From: a virus
Taxonomy: Duplodnaviria > Heunggongvirae > Uroviricota > Caudoviricetes
Direction: 5' to 3' (one strand)
Virus record (IMG/VR): IMGVR_UViG_2690316166_000005
Length of the DNA: 6,277 nucleotides
The translations under genes were made by a program, and so were the position numbers. Below the pieces are notes generated by a model. The model was not told the origin of the DNA and made no database searches. It saw only the letters and a list, made by a program, of their open reading frames with translations. Shown in pieces: positions 644-6,277 of the stretch. How positions within the stretch are numbered: position 1 is the stretch's first letter; every line of letters begins with the position of its first letter.

Positions 644-915
644 GTATTCGTATTGAAATTGGCGAACGTTATGTCGTTACCAGTGACAGCTTCCAGTTTA
701 TTCTCCACGAGAAAAAGAGAGCGGAAAGCGGTAAAAACGCCGGTCAGGAATGGCTGGCGGTGGTTGGTTATTACCCGAAATTAAGCCAGCTCGTTTCCGG
801 CCTGATGCATCACGATATTCTGACCGGAAGCGCAAAGTCTTTTGCTGATTTAAACGCGCAGGTTGAGCAACTCAGCAAGCGTTGTTCAGAGGCTTTTGGC
901 TCATATGGCCGTTAA
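640..915 (+). CDS. hypothetical small phage protein (91 aa)
   Basis: ATG 640 overlaps the preceding stop (ATGA at 640-643), with a GGAGAA SD-like sequence upstream. Ends TAA 913-915, overlapping the start of the replication gene. No recognisable motif. Confidence 0.6.
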   Translation: MSIRIEIGERYVVTSDSFQFILHEKKRAESGKNAGQEWLAVVGYYPKLSQLVSGLMHHDILTGSAKSFADLNAQVEQLSKRCSEAFGSYGR

Positions 916-3202
916 AGCCTCCGGGCGTTTTGTCCCTCCGTCAGCATTTGCTGCAGGCACCGGTAAGGCGTTTACCGGTGCTTATGCATGGAACGCGCCA
1001 CGCGAGGCTGTCGGGCGCGAAAGACCCCTTACACGTGACGAGATGCGTCAGGTGCAAGGTGTTTTATCCACGATTAACCGCCTGCCTTACTTTTTGCGCT
1101 CGCTGTTTACGTCACGCTATGACTACATCCGGCGCAATAAAAGCCCGGTGCACGGGTTTTATTTCCTCACATCCACTTTTCAGCGTCGTTTATGGCCGCG
1201 CATTGAGCGTGTGAATCAGCGCCATGAAATGAACACCGACGCGTCGATGCTGTTTCTGGCTGAGCGTGACCACTATGCGCGCCTGCCGGGAATGAATGAC
1301 AAGGAGCTGAAAAAGTTTGCCGCCCGTATCTCATCGCAGCTTTTCATGATGTATGAGGAACTCAGCGATGCCTGGGTGGATGCGCATGGCGAAAAAGAAT
1401 CGCTGTTTACGGATGAGGCGCAGGCTCACCTCTATGGTCATGTTGCTGGCGCTGCACGTGCTTTCAATATTTCCCCTCTCTACTGGAAAAAATACCGTAA
1501 AGGACAGATGACCACGAGGCAGGCATATTCTGCCATTGCCCGTCTGTTTAACGATGAGTGGTGGATTAGTCAGCTTAAAGGCCAGCGTATGCGCTGGCAT
1601 GAGGCGTTACTGATTGCTGTCGGGGAGGTCAATAAAGACCGTTCTCCTTATGCCAGTAAACATGCCATTCGTGATGTGCGTGCACGCCGCCAGGCAAATC
1701 TGGAATTTCTTAAATCGTGTGATCTCGAAAACAGGGAAACAGGCGAGCGCATCGACCTTATCAGTAAGGTGATGGGCAGTATTTCTAATCCTGAAATTCG
1801 CCGGATGGAGCTGATGAACACCATTGCCGGTATTGAGCGTTACGCCGCCGCAGAAGGTGATGTGGGGATGTTTATCACGCTGACCGCGCCGTCAAAGTAT
1901 CACCCGACACGTCAGGTTGGAAAAGGCGAAAGTAAAACCGTCCAGCTAAATCACGGCTGGAACGATGAGGCATTTAATCCAAAGGATGCGCAGCGTTATC
2001 TCTGCCGTATCTGGAGCCTGATGCGCACGGCATTCAAGGATAATGATTTACAGGTCTACGGTTTGCGAGTCGTCGAGCCACACCACGACGGAACGCCGCA
2101 CTGGCATATGATGCTTTTTTGTAATCCACGCCAGCGTAACCAGATTATCGAAATCATGCGTCGCTACGCGCTCAAAGAGGATGGCGACGAAAGAGGAGCT
2201 GCGCGAAACCGTTTTCAGGCAAAACATCTTAATCGGGGCGGTGCTGCGGGGTATATCGCGAAATACATCTCAAAAAATATCGACGGCTATGCACTGGATG
2301 GGCAGCTCGATAACGATAGCGGCAGACCGCTGAAAGATACTGCCGCGGCTGTTACCGCATGGGCGTCAACGTGGCGCATTCCGCAATTTAAAACGGTTGG
2401 CCTGCCGACAATGGGGGCTTACCGTGAACTACGCAAATTGCCTCGCGGCGTCAGCATTGCTGATGAGTTTGACGAGCGCGTCGAGGCTGCACGCGCCGCC
2501 GCAGACAGTGGTGATTTTGCGCTGTATATCAGCGCGCAGGGTGGGGCAAATGTCCCGCGCGATTGTCAGACTGTCAGGGTCGCCCGTAGTCCGTCGGATG
2601 AAGTTAACGAGTACGAGGAAGAAGTCGAGAGAGTGGTCGGCATTTACGCGCCGCATCTCGGCGCGCGTCATATTCATATCACCAGAACGACGGACTGGCG
2701 CATTGTTCCGAAAGTGCCGGTCGTTGAGCCTTTGACTTTAAAAAGCGGCATCGCCGCGCCTCGGAGTCCTGTCAATAACTGTGGAAAGCTCACTGGTGGT
2801 GATACTTCGTTACCGGCTCCCACACCTTCTGAGCACGCCGCAGCAGTGCTTAATCTGGTAGATGACGGTGTTATCGAATGGAATGACCCGGAGGTTGTGA
2901 GGGCGCTCAGAGGTGCATTAAAACACGGACTGAGAAGACCAAACCGTCAGCAAAGAAACGGAAGCCCGTTAAAACCGCATGAAATAGCGCCATCGGCCAG
3001 ACTGACCCGGTCGGAACGAATGCAAATTACCCGTATCCGCGTTGACCTTGCTCAGAACGGTATCAGGCCGCAGCGATGGGAGCTTGAGGTGCTGGCGCGT
3101 GGGGCAACCGTAAATTATGACGGGAAAAAATTCACTTACCCGCTCGCTGATGAGTGGTCGGGATTCTCAACAGTATTAGAGTCAAACTCAGTGAAGCGTT
3201 AA
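905..3202 (+). CDS. A: rolling-circle replication initiation endonuclease, P2 gpA-like (HUH superfamily), ~765 aa from ATG 905
   Basis: Long ORF (track 863..3202, which begins at a TTG). HUH motif P-H-W-H-M-M-L-F encoded at 2099-2107. Paired catalytic tyrosines in G-Y-I-A-K-Y-I-S-K (Tyr codons 2252-2254 and 2264-2266), the same YxxKY spacing as phiX174 gpA and P2 gpA. The size (~765 aa) and the N-terminus MAVKASGRF... are consistent with my recollection of P2 gpA. Start set at ATG 905, which overlaps the upstream ORF by 11 nt; TTG 863 is an alternative. Confidence 0.9.
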   Translation: MAVKASGRFVPPSAFAAGTGKAFTGAYAWNAPREAVGRERPLTRDEMRQVQGVLSTINRLPYFLRSLFTSRYDYIRRNKSPVHGFYFLTSTFQRRLWPRIERVNQRHEMNTDASMLFLAERDHYARLPGMNDKELKKFAARISSQLFMMYEELSDAWVDAHGEKESLFTDEAQAHLYGHVAGAARAFNISPLYWKKYRKGQMTTRQAYSAIARLFNDEWWISQLKGQRMRWHEALLIAVGEVNKDRSPYASKHAIRDVRARRQANLEFLKSCDLENRETGERIDLISKVMGSISNPEIRRMELMNTIAGIERYAAAEGDVGMFITLTAPSKYHPTRQVGKGESKTVQLNHGWNDEAFNPKDAQRYLCRIWSLMRTAFKDNDLQVYGLRVVEPHHDGTPHWHMMLFCNPRQRNQIIEIMRRYALKEDGDERGAARNRFQAKHLNRGGAAGYIAKYISKNIDGYALDGQLDNDSGRPLKDTAAAVTAWASTWRIPQFKTVGLPTMGAYRELRKLPRGVSIADEFDERVEAARAAADSGDFALYISAQGGANVPRDCQTVRVARSPSDEVNEYEEEVERVVGIYAPHLGARHIHITRTTDWRIVPKVPVVEPLTLKSGIAAPRSPVNNCGKLTGGDTSLPAPTPSEHAAAVLNLVDDGVIEWNDPEVVRALRGALKHGLRRPNRQQRNGSPLKPHEIAPSARLTRSERMQITRIRVDLAQNGIRPQRWELEVLARGATVNYDGKKFTYPLADEWSGFSTVLESNSVKR
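2755..2785 (+). other. candidate rolling-circle origin (nick site) embedded in the gpA coding sequence
   Basis: In P2 the origin cleaved by gpA lies inside the 3' part of gene A. The segment GCGCCTCGGAGTCCTGTCAATAACTG here resembles my unverified recollection of the P2 ori/nick region and sits about 80% of the way through the gene. Position is inferred, not demonstrated. Confidence 0.25.
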
Positions 3203-3240
3203 CTCAATAAATATGAGTTTATAAGTTAGGCCTCGAGATT

Positions 3241-3285
3241 TTGTAGAAAGGGATGTATACTGAGTATCGTATAGATTTGGAGTGA
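3241..3285 (+). promoter_or_regulatory. putative promoter and ribosome-binding region for the methyltransferase gene
   Basis: AT-rich 83-bp intergenic spacer after the gpA stop. -10-like hexamers TATACT (3256-3261) and TATAGA (3270-3275) and a -35-like TTGTAG (3241-3246) are present, but spacing is non-canonical. SD GGAG (3279-3282) lies 6 nt upstream of ATG 3289. Confidence 0.3.
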
Positions 3286-3288
3286 GTG

Positions 3289-4311
3289 ATGACTGTAAAG
3301 GTGATAGACCTTTTTTGTGGTGCTGGCGGATTAACTCATGGTTTGCAGCTTGCGGGGCTTGATGTCGTTGCAGGCATTGACCTTGAGGGGGAATGTAGGT
3401 TTCCCTATGAAAGAAACAATAAATCTAAGTTTATTGAGCAAGATATCGCTAAAGTAACAAAAGAGGAACTGCTGAGGCTTTATGGTGATGCGTCTGTAAA
3501 AGTATTGGCAGGATGCGCACCTTGCCAACCTTTTTCAAAATATACTCAAGGAAAAGATAAGGCTGATGATAAAAAATGGCCTCTTCTTTATGAGTTCGAA
3601 CGTTTAATTCGCGAAGTATCTCCAGAAATCGTAACAATGGAGAACGTTCCTGATGTAACTAAACATAAAGTTTATAATGATTTTTATAATTCATTGTTAA
3701 AGTTGGGCTATTATGTTTGGGCGTCTAAGATTGATTGTGTCGAATATGGAATCCCACAAAACCGTTCCCGTCATGTATTGTTGGCCTCAAAATTGGGGGC
3801 GATTGAGTTAGTAAAACGTGACGATGTTATTTTGAAAACAGTTAGAGATGCAATAGGAAATCTTCCTCCATTAGAAGATGGCCAAACAGATCCAAATGAT
3901 ATATTACATAGAGCCAGTAAATTAAATCCGATTAATAAAAAAAGAATTATACACTCTGTTCCTGGTGGTACATGGAAGGACTGGCCGAAAGAGTTGGTTG
4001 CCGCTTGTCATATGAAATCCAGCGGTAAAGGGTATGCTAGTGTATATGGGCGCATGTCTTGGGATAAGCCAAGTCCAACAATTACAACTCTTTGTTATGG
4101 TTTCGGGAATGGGCGTTTTGGACATCCAGAACAGCATAGAGCGATTTCTCTTAGAGAGGCTGCTTTATTGCAAACTTTCCCGATGGATTATATTTTTGTA
4201 GAAGACAAAAACAAGTTTGTTATAAGAAGTATTGGGAAAATGATAGGTAATGCTGTTCCTGTGGAACTAGGAAAAGCAATTGGGCAATCAATCAAGAACC
4301 ATTTAGAATGA
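3289..4311 (+). CDS. DNA (cytosine-5)-methyltransferase (C5-MTase), ~340 aa
   Basis: Canonical C5-MTase motifs in the canonical order: motif I F-C-G-A-G-G (3313-3330, AdoMet binding); motif IV G-C-A-P-C-Q-P-F-S with the catalytic Cys in PCQ (3520-3528); motif VI E-N-V (3640-3648); motif VIII Q-N-R-S-R; C-terminal motif X G-N-A-V-P-V. ATG 3289 is preferred over GTG 3286 on SD spacing. Stop TGA 4309-4311. Confidence 0.9.
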   Translation: MTVKVIDLFCGAGGLTHGLQLAGLDVVAGIDLEGECRFPYERNNKSKFIEQDIAKVTKEELLRLYGDASVKVLAGCAPCQPFSKYTQGKDKADDKKWPLLYEFERLIREVSPEIVTMENVPDVTKHKVYNDFYNSLLKLGYYVWASKIDCVEYGIPQNRSRHVLLASKLGAIELVKRDDVILKTVRDAIGNLPPLEDGQTDPNDILHRASKLNPINKKRIIHSVPGGTWKDWPKELVAACHMKSSGKGYASVYGRMSWDKPSPTITTLCYGFGNGRFGHPEQHRAISLREAALLQTFPMDYIFVEDKNKFVIRSIGKMIGNAVPVELGKAIGQSIKNHLE

Positions 4312-4312
4312 T

Positions 4313-4340
4313 AAAATGGCCTGCTTTACAGGCCTTATAA
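4313..4340. terminator. putative bidirectional intrinsic terminator between convergent genes
   Basis: Perfect inverted repeat GGCCTG (4318-4323) / CAGGCC (4329-4334) with a 5-nt loop, flanked by an A-run on one side and T-rich sequence on the other. It lies exactly between the MTase stop (4311) and the HEPN gene stop (4341). The stem is short (6 bp), so strength is uncertain. Confidence 0.45.
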
Positions 4341-5021
4341 CTATTGTTCTAAATATTCATTATTATTTATATAGTGCTCTATATTATTCACGATAGCATC
4401 AAGATAGGCGATTACTTCTAATGAAATATTCTCTAAGTCCTGATATGAAACATTTTTTCCAATCTCAGCAAATGATACATTGCCATGAGATAAATCATTA
4501 CGATGTTGTTTAACAGTGGCTAATTTTTCACCATGTTTAGTGTGAGTGTAATCGGAATGTGTAGAAAAACCATATATTTTCGATTTTTCTTTGATTTCCT
4601 CTCTATCAATATTTCCTGAGAATATTTTCTTTTTGTTGAACGTGCCATAAGATATACCGCAAGATATACCTTTGGTAAGGTGATTAACTAAACTTTCAAC
4701 ATTTACAGATTCATTTTTTAATCTTTTTAATATTTCTGACCTGAGATTTTTCCTGAGTTTGTCAAATTCTACGTTTCTATCATAAATAGTCTCATGAATA
4801 AGGCAGATAGCTTCTCTCATTGTTGATTCAATGAGGTTATATAACAGTATATATACTGCTCCCTTTAGAGTTTTTCGTGATTGAGCAGTAATGGAGAACT
4901 TATGTTCTTTATCATCAGCTGATATCAGTTCTGCACCGGCATACTCAATAAATTTCAAAAGATCCAAATAGGCCAAGATCTCTCCTGACCTTTCGTCAAA
5001 ATCCTCACGAAAACGATCCAT
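4341..5021 (-). CDS. HEPN-domain protein (MAE_28990/MAE_18760-like predicted RNase), 226 aa
   Basis: ATG at 5019-5021 (- strand) with an AGAGGA SD 5 nt upstream, located inside the 3' end of the upstream gene. Only 1 nt separates the upstream TAA (5023-5025) from this ATG. Contains an Rx4H HEPN-type motif, H-R-N-D-L-S-H-G (Arg codon 4500-4502, His codon 4485-4487), near the C-terminal third of a small, predicted all-helical protein. Stop TAG 4341-4343. Confidence 0.75.
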   Translation of the reverse strand: MDRFREDFDERSGEILAYLDLLKFIEYAGAELISADDKEHKFSITAQSRKTLKGAVYILLYNLIESTMREAICLIHETIYDRNVEFDKLRKNLRSEILKRLKNESVNVESLVNHLTKGISCGISYGTFNKKKIFSGNIDREEIKEKSKIYGFSTHSDYTHTKHGEKLATVKQHRNDLSHGNVSFAEIGKNVSYQDLENISLEVIAYLDAIVNNIEHYINNNEYLEQ

Positions 5022-5022
5022 G

Positions 5023-6165
5023 TTAATCCTCTAATAATTTATCCCGAACATATTCAATTCGTTCAATTACCTTCACGCGACTATTAGCTCCGTCGGAAGT
5101 GGTCAATCGTTTGAATTCTTCTGAGCTTAGCCAATCTAAGTTCTTGGGAACAAGGTCAGGGACTTCACGTAATGCAAGTGCTGCGCCAACAGCGAGAGAT
5201 TCGAATCTAACTCGAGGTGTAGATTTTGCAGTAATAGTTTTCTTGAATCCTGCTGGGAAATAGTTTTCAACAAAAGATAGAACATTAGCAAACTCTTGTT
5301 TCATTGAGTTTTGTTTAGTTTCGTCTATATCTCGATTTTCTGACATATAGTCATTTAGAAAATCCCGTACGGAATGATCAAAGTTCTTGTACTTATCTAC
5401 GTAGGCAAAGAATCTTAATGTAAATTCTAACCGTTCATCTCGTTTTTCTTTAGTCTGAGATAAAGGTGCTAATTCTTTAAATTTAGGTATTGTTGAGCAT
5501 GGCTTAATAACCTGTGTATATAAATTTGTTGAACCAAGTTCTGATCCTTTACGGACTTCCATATCTTTCAATATATCGCTGCCAGAGTTAATACGCTCAA
5601 AAAGATCTCTACGGGTTTCTTCATTGCATTTAGAACTCAATTCTATAACGCGGACAGGAATTCTCATGAAACGACGTTGACGTGATAATGGTAAATCTTG
5701 GAATTTGAAACCATTAAGGACGTCTAAAGATTTCAGGTCTTGTAAAACTAATTCATTTTGGATAAAAGCGTGTATAGTCCTAACTCGTTGTGAGCCATCA
5801 ACAATCTCAATTCGCCCATCTAAATCGGGATCTTCGGAGAGAACATCTGCTATAAATATATATGGTATAGGAAAACCCAAAATCAAAGACTCTATCAATT
5901 TTGATTGTCTTTTTTCACTCCAAACAAAATCCCTTTGATAATCAGGAACAAAGAGTTCGTTAGTATCATCCTCTAATCCGTTATGATACTTATTAACTAA
6001 TAACTCAACGGTAAATTCTTTGGTCTCAAAATCCACATCCTTTTGCTCAGCACGAATTTGCTCTTCAGCGTTTTGCTTTATCACCTCTAGCTGAGCAAGC
6101 AACTCTGCTCTTTTCTTGGCATTATCTTCATTTTCTAGTTGAGATTTTAAATCAATAATGTCCAT
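5023..6165 (-). CDS. DUF262 (ParB-like / GmrS-like N-terminal domain) protein, ~380 aa
   Basis: ORF track 5023..6183, beginning at a TTG. ATG at 6163-6165 (- strand) is preferred because an AAGGGAA SD lies 7 nt upstream. Hallmark DUF262 motifs: V-P-D-Y-Q-R-D-F-V-W (DYQR codons 5932-5943) and I-V-D-G-S-Q-R (DGSQR codons 5785-5799, the DGQQR-type motif). No HNH/DUF1524-like motif was recognised in the C-terminal half. Confidence 0.8.
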   Translation of the reverse strand: MDIIDLKSQLENEDNAKKRAELLAQLEVIKQNAEEQIRAEQKDVDFETKEFTVELLVNKYHNGLEDDTNELFVPDYQRDFVWSEKRQSKLIESLILGFPIPYIFIADVLSEDPDLDGRIEIVDGSQRVRTIHAFIQNELVLQDLKSLDVLNGFKFQDLPLSRQRRFMRIPVRVIELSSKCNEETRRDLFERINSGSDILKDMEVRKGSELGSTNLYTQVIKPCSTIPKFKELAPLSQTKEKRDERLEFTLRFFAYVDKYKNFDHSVRDFLNDYMSENRDIDETKQNSMKQEFANVLSFVENYFPAGFKKTITAKSTPRVRFESLAVGAALALREVPDLVPKNLDWLSSEEFKRLTTSDGANSRVKVIERIEYVRDKLLED

Positions 6166-6277
6166 GTCTAGTTCCCTTAACAAGTGTTAAAAATTGAAGC
6201 GGATAGCATACCGCATAGATCATGAAAAATGCCATCATGTGCATGGTGCGTATTCCGCTCTATTCGATCACGGATTG

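Follow-up and report, generated by a model that had tools for sequence, protein, structure and literature searches.

Gene A of a P2-type prophage and the probable rolling-circle origin embedded in its coding sequence

Introduction

In phage P2 (AF063097/NC_001895), the replication origin (ori) lies inside gene A (PMC3986222, citing Liu and Haggard-Ljungquist 1994), and the A protein has two active-site tyrosines in motif C (PMC3986222, citing Odegrip and Haggard-Ljungquist 2001). The P2 origin, at position 29,892, was determined experimentally, and its nick-site sequence is one that Peduovirinae have conserved (PMC8537503). Phage 186 (U32222) has an annotated rep_origin at 28576, which its record describes as 'located by similarity with P2; consistent with electron microscopy mapping'. 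In phiX174 (NC_001422), the gene A protein carries HFH at residue 263 and YVAKY at residue 343, and the origin (rep_origin 4306) is located inside the initiator's own gene A. The phiX174 genome is single-stranded DNA.

A similar layout is found at the oriT of conjugative relaxases of the TrwC/TraI type, where an inverted repeat lies on the 5' side of nic, separated from it by a few nucleotides. The order of elements is a stem-loop, a short single-stranded spacer, and the cleavage site, and the HUH enzyme stays on the 5' end of the cleaved strand.

Here, we analyzed a 6,277-nt stretch of Caudoviricetes DNA (the window) by comparison with these systems. We assign a probability of about 0.93 to the reading that a P2-type (Peduovirus) prophage is represented here by its gene A, which holds a rolling-circle origin within its own reading frame.

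Results and Discussion

Gene A and its product

Gene A, encoding the rolling-circle replication initiator gpA (765 amino acids), spans positions 905 to 3202 of the window on the + strand. Its ORF and translation begin with the ATG at 905 and end with a stop codon at 3200-3202, which is included in the span; the start at 863 given in the ORF list is merely the first in-frame TTG. The gene is 96.6% identical to P2 gene A at the nucleotide level. The preliminary description had called its product a gpA-type HUH initiator, and this assignment was borne out by a match to Pfam PF05840 (Phage_GPA; E = 1.9e-123, with a score of 412 bits where the curated cut-off is 31.4) that covers profile positions 1-321 of 321, and by 97% identity to P2 gpA (740 of 759 residues, with 19 substitutions and no gaps). 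The frame is full-length, uninterrupted, and colinear with that of P2 gpA. Homology to P2 stops at about position 3182 of the window, and the last six gpA residues therefore differ.

All catalytic motifs of gpA, including the HUH and Y450/Y454 motifs, are the same as in P2 gpA. The HUH motif, H399-W400-H401 within EPHHDGTPHWH, is encoded in frame by CAC TGG CAT at 2099-2107 on the + strand, and the active-site tyrosine pair, Y450-I-A-K-Y454, by TAT ATC GCG AAA TAC at 2252-2266, also in frame and on the + strand; both had been reported at these positions in the preliminary description. Residues E391, P392, D395, T397, P398, H399, W400, and H401, as well as Y450, K453, and Y454, showed no variation among nine divergent gpA proteins. 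The A protein of 186 is only about 36% identical to the gpA of the window. The phiX174 gene A protein shares the enzyme class and the same Y-x-A-K-Y-x-x-K motif with gpA, and the second Pfam family matched by gpA, PF23343 (REP_ORF2-G2P; E = 2.2e-7), also links the two. A PDB sequence search found no related solved structure for gpA. These comparisons support identification of the gene A product as a gpA-type HUH initiator, which is predicted to nick one DNA strand site-specifically, with covalent 5' attachment.

The ori core and nick site

The preliminary description stated that the P2 ori lies inside gene A and proposed a candidate segment around 2755-2785. The 26-mer quoted there, GCGCCTCGGAGTCCTGTCAATAACTG, is located at 2756-2781, one base off, and the P2 'nick site at ori' (AF063097, position 29892) corresponds to window position 2763, within the candidate. 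An alignment to the P2 and 186 origins had been suggested as a check. Positions 2733-2793 of the window (61 nt, spanning the nick site) are the same as in P2, and the offset of the nick site within gene A, 1858 nt, is equal in both. By this comparison, the candidate segment is the known P2 origin, which is already textbook knowledge.

The nick-site core, CTCGGAGTCCTGTCAATAACTGT, occupies positions 2760-2782 on the + strand (23 nt) and matches the rep_origin annotations of both P2 and 186. It starts at offset 1855 of the 2298 nt of gene A (81%), on the coding strand and in the C-terminal part of the gene. In 186, the ori also lies within the gene and on the coding strand; its core is identical to that of the window at 22 of 23 positions, in the same frame, and forms a 23-nt island amid diverged flanks. 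The 186 rep_origin is placed on the same motif, one base further along than the P2 annotation. Based on these two single-base GenBank annotations, one position apart, the nick most likely separates G2763 from G2764, give or take 1 nt, which corresponds to the slash in CTCG/GAGTCCTGTCAATAACTGT. The coding (+) strand is presumably the one nicked. This base-level coordinate (2763/2764) can be used in annotation, in the design of mini-replicons, and in interpreting the neighboring defense hotspot.

The 23-nt core is present as a single copy in the window, the next best match having eight mismatches, and the ori covariance model gave one match there (2737-2786; 68.9 bits, E of about 2e-15), far more than chance would give. 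A phiX174-type origin was rejected: local alignment scored 12, against a shuffle mean of 13, and the two systems have in common only the placement of the ori inside gene A and the enzyme class. Model R1 gave no match on the phiX174 genome, where the ori lies at 21% of its gene rather than at 81% as in the window.

Conservation of the core across gpA genes

The core was present in the same frame, with zero to five mismatches, in all nine phage gpA genes that had been selected at the protein level and whose hosts range from Escherichia to Vibrio, Mannheimia, and Burkholderia. These homologous cores were located at 77-93% of the gene length. Each of 80 genomic gpA loci, chosen by their HUH and tyrosine motifs only, had exactly one core match, which lay on the coding strand with its frame preserved (80/80), and covariance model R1 found a match within the gene on the + strand in 81 of 81 sources. 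A practical rule follows: any Peduoviridae gpA gene is expected to carry one ori core in its 3' part.

The block could in principle be conserved for protein function only, as the peptide P-R-S-P-V-N-N-C, with the DNA not being a cis-acting site. Its translation is indeed an island of peptide conservation, P-[R/W]-[S/T]-x-V-N-N-C, amid a poorly conserved C-terminal region, and V623 and N625 are invariant in the compared gpA proteins. Codon usage argues against this explanation. Across eight divergent genes, only four of the 54 invariant columns with degenerate amino acids used the same codon throughout, and two of these four are in the ori core: V623 (GTC) and N625 (AAC). Both codons were kept in 8/8 genes, even in GC-rich Burkholderia and AT-rich Mannheimia, whereas only two of the other 52 invariant residues had a single codon. 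The P2 nick, moreover, was mapped experimentally to this exact core motif (PMC8537503), and the neighboring hairpin (see below) covaries although its encoded amino acids change. A constraint on the protein alone is thus extremely improbable. The codon comparison indicates that conservation of the core is acting on DNA, overlaid on the reading frame, which agrees with the earlier suggestion that a cis-acting origin constrains evolution of the gene. The core thus offers a clean example of DNA-level constraint within a reading frame.

A hairpin upstream of the nick

A GC-rich inverted repeat, GCGGC-ATC-GCCGC, is located at 2745-2757. It has a 5-bp stem and a 3-nt loop, and it ends 6 nt 5' of the nick. 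Taken alone, the hairpin of the window (-6 kcal/mol, z = -0.56) is indistinguishable from shuffles, and an Rfam scan of the window matched no family. Phage 186 likewise has a GC hairpin directly 5' of its core; that stem is predicted to have 7 bp and a 4-nt loop and, in contrast to the one in the window, is individually significant (z = -3.5).

Such stems are short (5-8 bp) and GC-rich, and the inverted repeat might accordingly have arisen from GC-rich codon usage, or from the way in which sequences were chosen, rather than being a selected structure. The set used for the first covariation count was indeed picked by register, and alignment with a covariance model leans toward the modeled structure. 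Comparison across sites makes this explanation very unlikely. At 83% of 72 distinct sites, the stem was perfect over 5 bp or more. Shuffles reached this length in 9% of cases, and control windows, drawn from the same genes and scored by the same free hairpin search, in 7%. In a set chosen on protein motifs alone, compensatory changes occurred in all six stem pairs (56 double-sided cells), one-sided changes were almost absent, and 86% of cells were paired, compared with 28-65% for slid controls. RNAalifold recovered the helix on its own. The amino acids encoded by the hairpin vary while the stem covaries. Mismatches in the stem, a potential clue to the folding strand, were few overall, with zero G.T and one A.C. 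In the unbiased set, about a sixth of distinct sites lacked the hairpin, and it therefore cannot be essential everywhere.

The hairpin might instead lie outside any origin function, as an intrinsic terminator for minus-strand antisense transcripts from the cargo genes. When the minus strand is read, TTTTTAAA comes directly after the stem, a consensus scan rates the site as terminator-like, and a T-tail is present at 28 of 36 distinct P2-type sites. The T-tail is, however, found at only 39 of 118 hairpin-bearing sites overall, and at 3 of 65 sites in the largest (186-type) clade, which keeps the hairpin. The A-run codes for Leu-Lys-Ser in the P2 clade, where shared ancestry can explain it. The hairpin is also situated 440 nt inside gene A, distant from the cargo genes, and keeps a constant spacing from the nick core, with its end 3-5 nt ahead of GGA. 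We consider termination an improbable role for it.

A TTGAC box and a possible composite origin

Upstream of the hairpin, a TTGAC box is present at 2732-2736, and a degenerate second copy, TTGAG, lies at 2724-2728; the first copy, TTGAC, is the one considered here. Its reverse complement, GTCAA, is an invariant part of the core (2771-2775). The motif occurred at -70 to -20 in 55% of 160 distinct sites, compared with 3.7% of control windows. It was found in two codon phases, 46 times in one and 67 times in the other, and is therefore conserved as DNA. TTGAC-type repeats are also present upstream of the hairpin in 186, where the codon phase of TTGAC is unlike that in the window. The TTGAC box and hairpin were also considered as a sigma-70 promoter; this was rejected, as a promoter scan called no such site there.

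We tentatively suggest, as a possibility that we consider less likely than not, that the P2-family origin is a composite element in coding sequence, consisting of the TTGAC box, the covarying GC hairpin, a 6-nt spacer, and the invariant nick core, with the hairpin as a recognition or positioning handle for gpA, as at a relaxase oriT. The layouts of the oriT and of the ori in the window are alike; this is a functional analogy only, since relaxases differ from gpA in HUH class and domain order, and their oriT is intergenic, outside the coding sequence of the enzyme. Such an architecture may be previously undescribed: the secondary literature covered here discusses the P2 ori but mentions neither a stem nor a hairpin. 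For the question of how gpA locates its site, the hairpin and TTGAC box offer testable candidates.

Proposed mechanism and genomic context

In the mechanism that we propose, gpA would be produced from gene A and would act preferentially in cis, in line with published work on P2. It would cut one strand at the ori core and become covalently linked to the new 5' end via one of the paired tyrosines, Y450 or Y454, with the catalytic metal held by the HUH histidines. The free 3'-OH would then serve as primer for unidirectional rolling-circle synthesis of the entire phage genome, and the second tyrosine would serve when cleavage and joining are repeated in the following round. On single-stranded or unwound DNA, the hairpin might help gpA to recognize or position the site, perhaps together with the TTGAC box, in a way comparable to the inverted repeat beside nic in conjugative relaxases.

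From the 97% identity to P2, we infer that this copy of gene A and its ori would be active; replication competence of the phage region can also be reasonably inferred from its sequence, and the replication module appears to be intact in this P2-type phage element. An alternative is that the gene and ori, while intact in sequence, are part of a prophage remnant, defective or non-inducible, whose origin never fires. The visible span is only 6.3 kb, with gene B, cos, int, the late genes, and the host factors lying beyond it, and to our knowledge P2 prophages are not SOS-inducible, which we count for a remnant. The gene order in the window is orf81, orf82, orf83, A, as in P2, and no frameshifts or stops were found in these four genes; the ori is the same as in P2. 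In addition, a 98%-identical relative lies within an apparently complete Escherichia coli prophage, in the order int, C, cox, B, orf80-83, A, the same cargo, and then Q, P, O, and N. In view of this conserved context, we regard a silent remnant as unlikely, and an element that may still replicate remains the preferred reading. For the window itself, the result carries small weight.

In place of the P2 genes orf91-tin-old, the window has genes for a cytosine methyltransferase, a HEPN protein, and a DUF262 protein, which are transcribed leftward. This cargo position downstream of gene A is the known gpA-gpQ hotspot (PMC9122126). The preliminary description had proposed that the origin is relevant to mobilization of the downstream defense cargo; this proposal gained no support. 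The cargo lies in the known hotspot and is simply copied along with the rest of the phage genome. Orphan copies of ori, open to mobilization by gpA in trans, were likewise unsupported in E. coli, where they are not common: the ori segment was found at 1858 places and a catalytic segment of equal length at 1831. Among the plasmid matches to ori that were listed, all fell within genes annotated as 'replication endonuclease'.

A P2-type replication initiator gene

The window carries the early replication region of a P2-type phage, consisting of orf81 (114-416) and orf83 (640-915), both DUF5405 genes, orf82 (419-643), which encodes a TraR/DksA zinc finger protein, and gene A (ATG at 905, stop codon at 3200-3202), which encodes the 765-aa initiator gpA. 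gpA matched the full Pfam Phage_GPA profile (E = 1.9e-123), with a further, weak match to PF23343, the phiX174/filamentous-phage Rep family. Gene A shares 96.6% DNA identity with P2 gene A and 97-98% with many Peduovirus isolates, and the window and P2 proteins align without gaps with 740 of 759 residues identical. The HUH motif H399-W400-H401 (2099-2107, codons CAC TGG CAT) and the tyrosine pair Y450-I-A-K-Y454 (2252-2266, codons TAT ATC GCG AAA TAC) are in frame on translation, at exactly the coordinates at which the preliminary description had placed them, and all of their residues are unchanged from P2. An alignment of nine gpA proteins with 29-58% identity to window gpA revealed that E391, P392, D395, T397, P398, H399, W400, and H401 are invariant, as are Y450, K453, and Y454. 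The active site of P2 A is described in a passage of PMC3986222 as partly formed by two tyrosines in motif C.

phiX174 shares with this system the enzyme class (motifs HFH and YVAKY) and an origin internal to gene A, annotated at 4306, but its origin DNA has no significant similarity to the window ori. In all testable features, the window element belongs to the P2 gpA/ori system. With only 6.3 kb seen, the element could be part of a dead prophage whose origin never fires; against this, none of the four reading frames is disrupted, and a relative with 98% identity lies in an apparently complete prophage adjoining cpxP.

Position 1 of three complete E. coli chromosome records (NZ_CP171864.1, NZ_AP027532.1, and NZ_CP116176.1) is the gpA start codon (window 905), and in two further E. 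coli chromosome records, position 1096 aligns to window 2000, implying the same start. A genome-rotation tool probably set position 1 at this 'replication' gene.

The P2 origin lies within gene A

The P2 record AF063097 annotates a rep_origin, 'nick site at ori', at 29892 within gene A. This base, 1858 nt from the start of the gene, corresponds to window G2763, and window 2733-2793 is identical to P2. PMC8537503 describes the P2 origin as determined by experiment at 29,892 and the nick-site sequence as conserved across the Peduovirinae. The ori passage of PMC3986222, citing Liu and Haggard-Ljungquist 1994, also places the P2 ori inside gene A. In the record of coliphage 186 (U32222), the ori is at 28576, on the same motif, and is annotated as assigned 'by similarity with P2; consistent with electron microscopy mapping'. 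The 26-mer proposed as the origin was found exactly, at 2756-2781, and it contains G2763. The candidate segment is therefore the known P2 origin, and the feature itself is already known. The original observation is confirmed, and its interpretation is supported. Since the annotated base is the fourth of CTCGGAG in P2 and the fifth in 186, a cut between the two G residues (G2763|G2764, plus or minus 1 nt) would fit.

The nick-site core is constrained as DNA

Comparison with 186 revealed a 23-nt core, CTCGGAGTyCTGTCAATAACTGT (window 2760-2782), as an island of identity between diverged flanks. The core was present with 0-5 mismatches in each of nine gpA genes chosen by protein similarity alone, from Escherichia, Yersinia, Klebsiella, Erwinia, Salmonella, Vibrio, Mannheimia, and Burkholderia phages. 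The codon phase of the core did not vary among them, and it lay 77-93% along the gene. For an unbiased sample, the HUH and Tyr peptide patterns alone were used to retrieve 80 loci from bacterial assemblies limited to one genome per species. A covariance model of the ori matched exactly once in the window and in every one of these loci (80/80), always on the coding strand and 1.6-1.9 kb into the gene.

Conservation of the block for its protein sequence only is contradicted by synonymous sites, which are frozen in the core. Among 54 invariant amino acid columns with degenerate codons, just four had a single codon across the eight divergent genes, and two of these, V623 (GTC) and N625 (AAC), fall within the core; the constraint on the core therefore acts on DNA. 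In E. coli, 182 records matched the 269-nt ori segment at ≥99% identity, versus 66 for an equal-length segment of the catalytic domain. These frozen codons and record counts bear out the earlier proposal that an internal origin constrains evolution of the gene. In two loci (L048:5217-5266 on the minus strand and L202:4644-4708), the 5' half of the core is repeated in short tandem duplications beside the nick position, with TTGGAC in three copies and CTTGGAGTTC in two as the repeated units.

A hairpin and a TTGAC box precede the core

A GC-rich inverted repeat, GCGGC-ATC-GCCGC (2745-2757), lies directly 5' of the core and ends 6 nt before the inferred nick. Folded alone, it does not stand out (-6 kcal/mol, z = -0.56). 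Of 72 distinct segments upstream of the core, taken from loci picked on the core only, 83% had a perfect stem of 5 bp or more, compared with 9% of shuffles and 7% of equal-sized control windows elsewhere in the same genes. The arms of these 72 comprised 39 different sequences, with the stem ending 3-5 nt before GGA. In the protein-selected set, two-sided changes occurred in all six modelled pairs (56 cells) with almost no one-sided changes, and 86% of cells were paired, versus 28-65% with slid partners. RNAalifold independently recovered the inner four pairs. The same-gene controls and the protein-selected sample contradict an artefact of composition or selection. G.U-type intermediates were nearly absent, which is more in keeping with a DNA element than with an RNA one.

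It is possible that in the P2 clade the hairpin is a minus-strand terminator: read on that strand, 2737-2757 is the hairpin followed by TTTTTAAA, called terminator-like, and such a tail occurs in 28 of 36 P2-type sites. However, the T-tail accompanies just 39 of 118 hairpin sites overall, and 3 of 65 in the 186-type clade.

About one distinct site in six lacks the stem, several Rahnella and Xenorhabdus loci among them, so the hairpin is common but not obligatory, being dispensable or replaced in some lineages. Loci that keep the core with no recognisable hairpin directly upstream include L150, L151, L153, L155, L157, L158, and L161 (Serratia, Rahnella, and Ewingella), L198 (Xenorhabdus), and L203 and L208 (Pantoea).

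The sequence TTGAC, the reverse complement of invariant GTCAA in the core (2771-2775), lies 25-45 nt upstream of the nick at 2732-2736, with a degenerate further copy, TTGAG, at 2724-2728. The box may pair with the core GTCAA or bind a protein. It occurred at -70 to -20 in 55% of 160 distinct P2-family ori sites, versus 3.7% of control windows. The boxes are in two codon phases, indicating that this element too is conserved as DNA. Among the loci inspected, it was absent from the Vibrio, Burkholderia, and Pasteurellaceae lineages.

By the established mechanism of P2 and HUH enzymes, gpA nicks the ori strand, and a tyrosine keeps it attached to the 5' end. Rolling-circle synthesis is then primed by the 3'-OH and runs in one direction, and the second tyrosine is used to cleave again and to join. 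gpA has a preference for acting in cis. The window gpA would be expected to follow the same steps at G2763|G2764 (plus or minus 1 nt). The strand cut is probably the + (coding) strand, given a reported gene-A-dependent L-strand break and the analogy with phiX174. The hairpin, 6 nt 5' of the nick, may position gpA on unwound or displaced single-stranded DNA, much like inverted repeats at relaxase nic sites.

The new content is modest: a family-wide description of the origin at the DNA level, with a covarying hairpin and a TTGAC box whose roles are putative. PMC8537503 and the retrieved ori passages of PMC3986222 describe no stem or hairpin at the P2 ori; the 1990s primary papers may well have it, and the description as a whole may already stand in that literature.

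Cargo genes and copies of the origin elsewhere

Three cargo genes 3' of gene A (3286-6183) lie in the gpA-gpQ hotspot of Rousset et al. 2022 (PMC9122126). They encode a C5 cytosine methyltransferase (3286-4311, plus strand; best PADLOC matches DrmMII/MTase_II), a MAE_28990-type HEPN protein (4341-5021, minus strand; no PADLOC match), and a DUF262/GmrSD_N protein (5023-6183, minus strand; PADLOC NsnA, 1.7e-54, and PD-T4-2_A, 2.5e-35). Of 5426 complete E. coli genomes, 9 had the full cargo arrangement and 1725 the gpA region. P2-type homology ends at ~3182, ~20 nt short of the gpA stop codon, and the last 6 residues are unlike P2, which places the hotspot recombination junction within the final codons of the gene. 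A promoter-like site (TCGAGA-17 nt-TATACT, 3233-3261) lies directly upstream of the methyltransferase gene.

The suggestion that the origin is relevant to mobilisation of this cargo found no support: no specific link between the two was seen, and the cargo replicates along with the rest of the phage genome. Orphan ori copies are not typical of E. coli genomes (1858 places with the ori segment versus 1831 with the catalytic segment), nor are they a feature of plasmids, in which the matches listed all fall within 'replication endonuclease' genes. About 20 plasmid records (e.g., NZ_CP025141.1 and NZ_CP104682.1) carry such a P2-type gene including the ori segment (18 at 95-99% identity). Many of these plasmids are ~200 kb, from Klebsiella, E. 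coli, Citrobacter, and Enterobacter; conjugative ability is predicted for 12.

The sole orphan ori seen is a ~265-bp fragment in the 254-kb T4-like Aeromonas phage AP1 (MT713136, 242698-242970; L212:1501-1773). It corresponds to window ~2522-2787, is ~98% identical to P2 gene A, and has sharp ends. The fragment adjoins a tRNA cluster and contains the complete nick core together with the hairpin and TTGAC box, with the rest of gpA absent. It scored 68.9 bits with the ori model and may be either a genuinely captured orphan ori or a chimera made in assembly.
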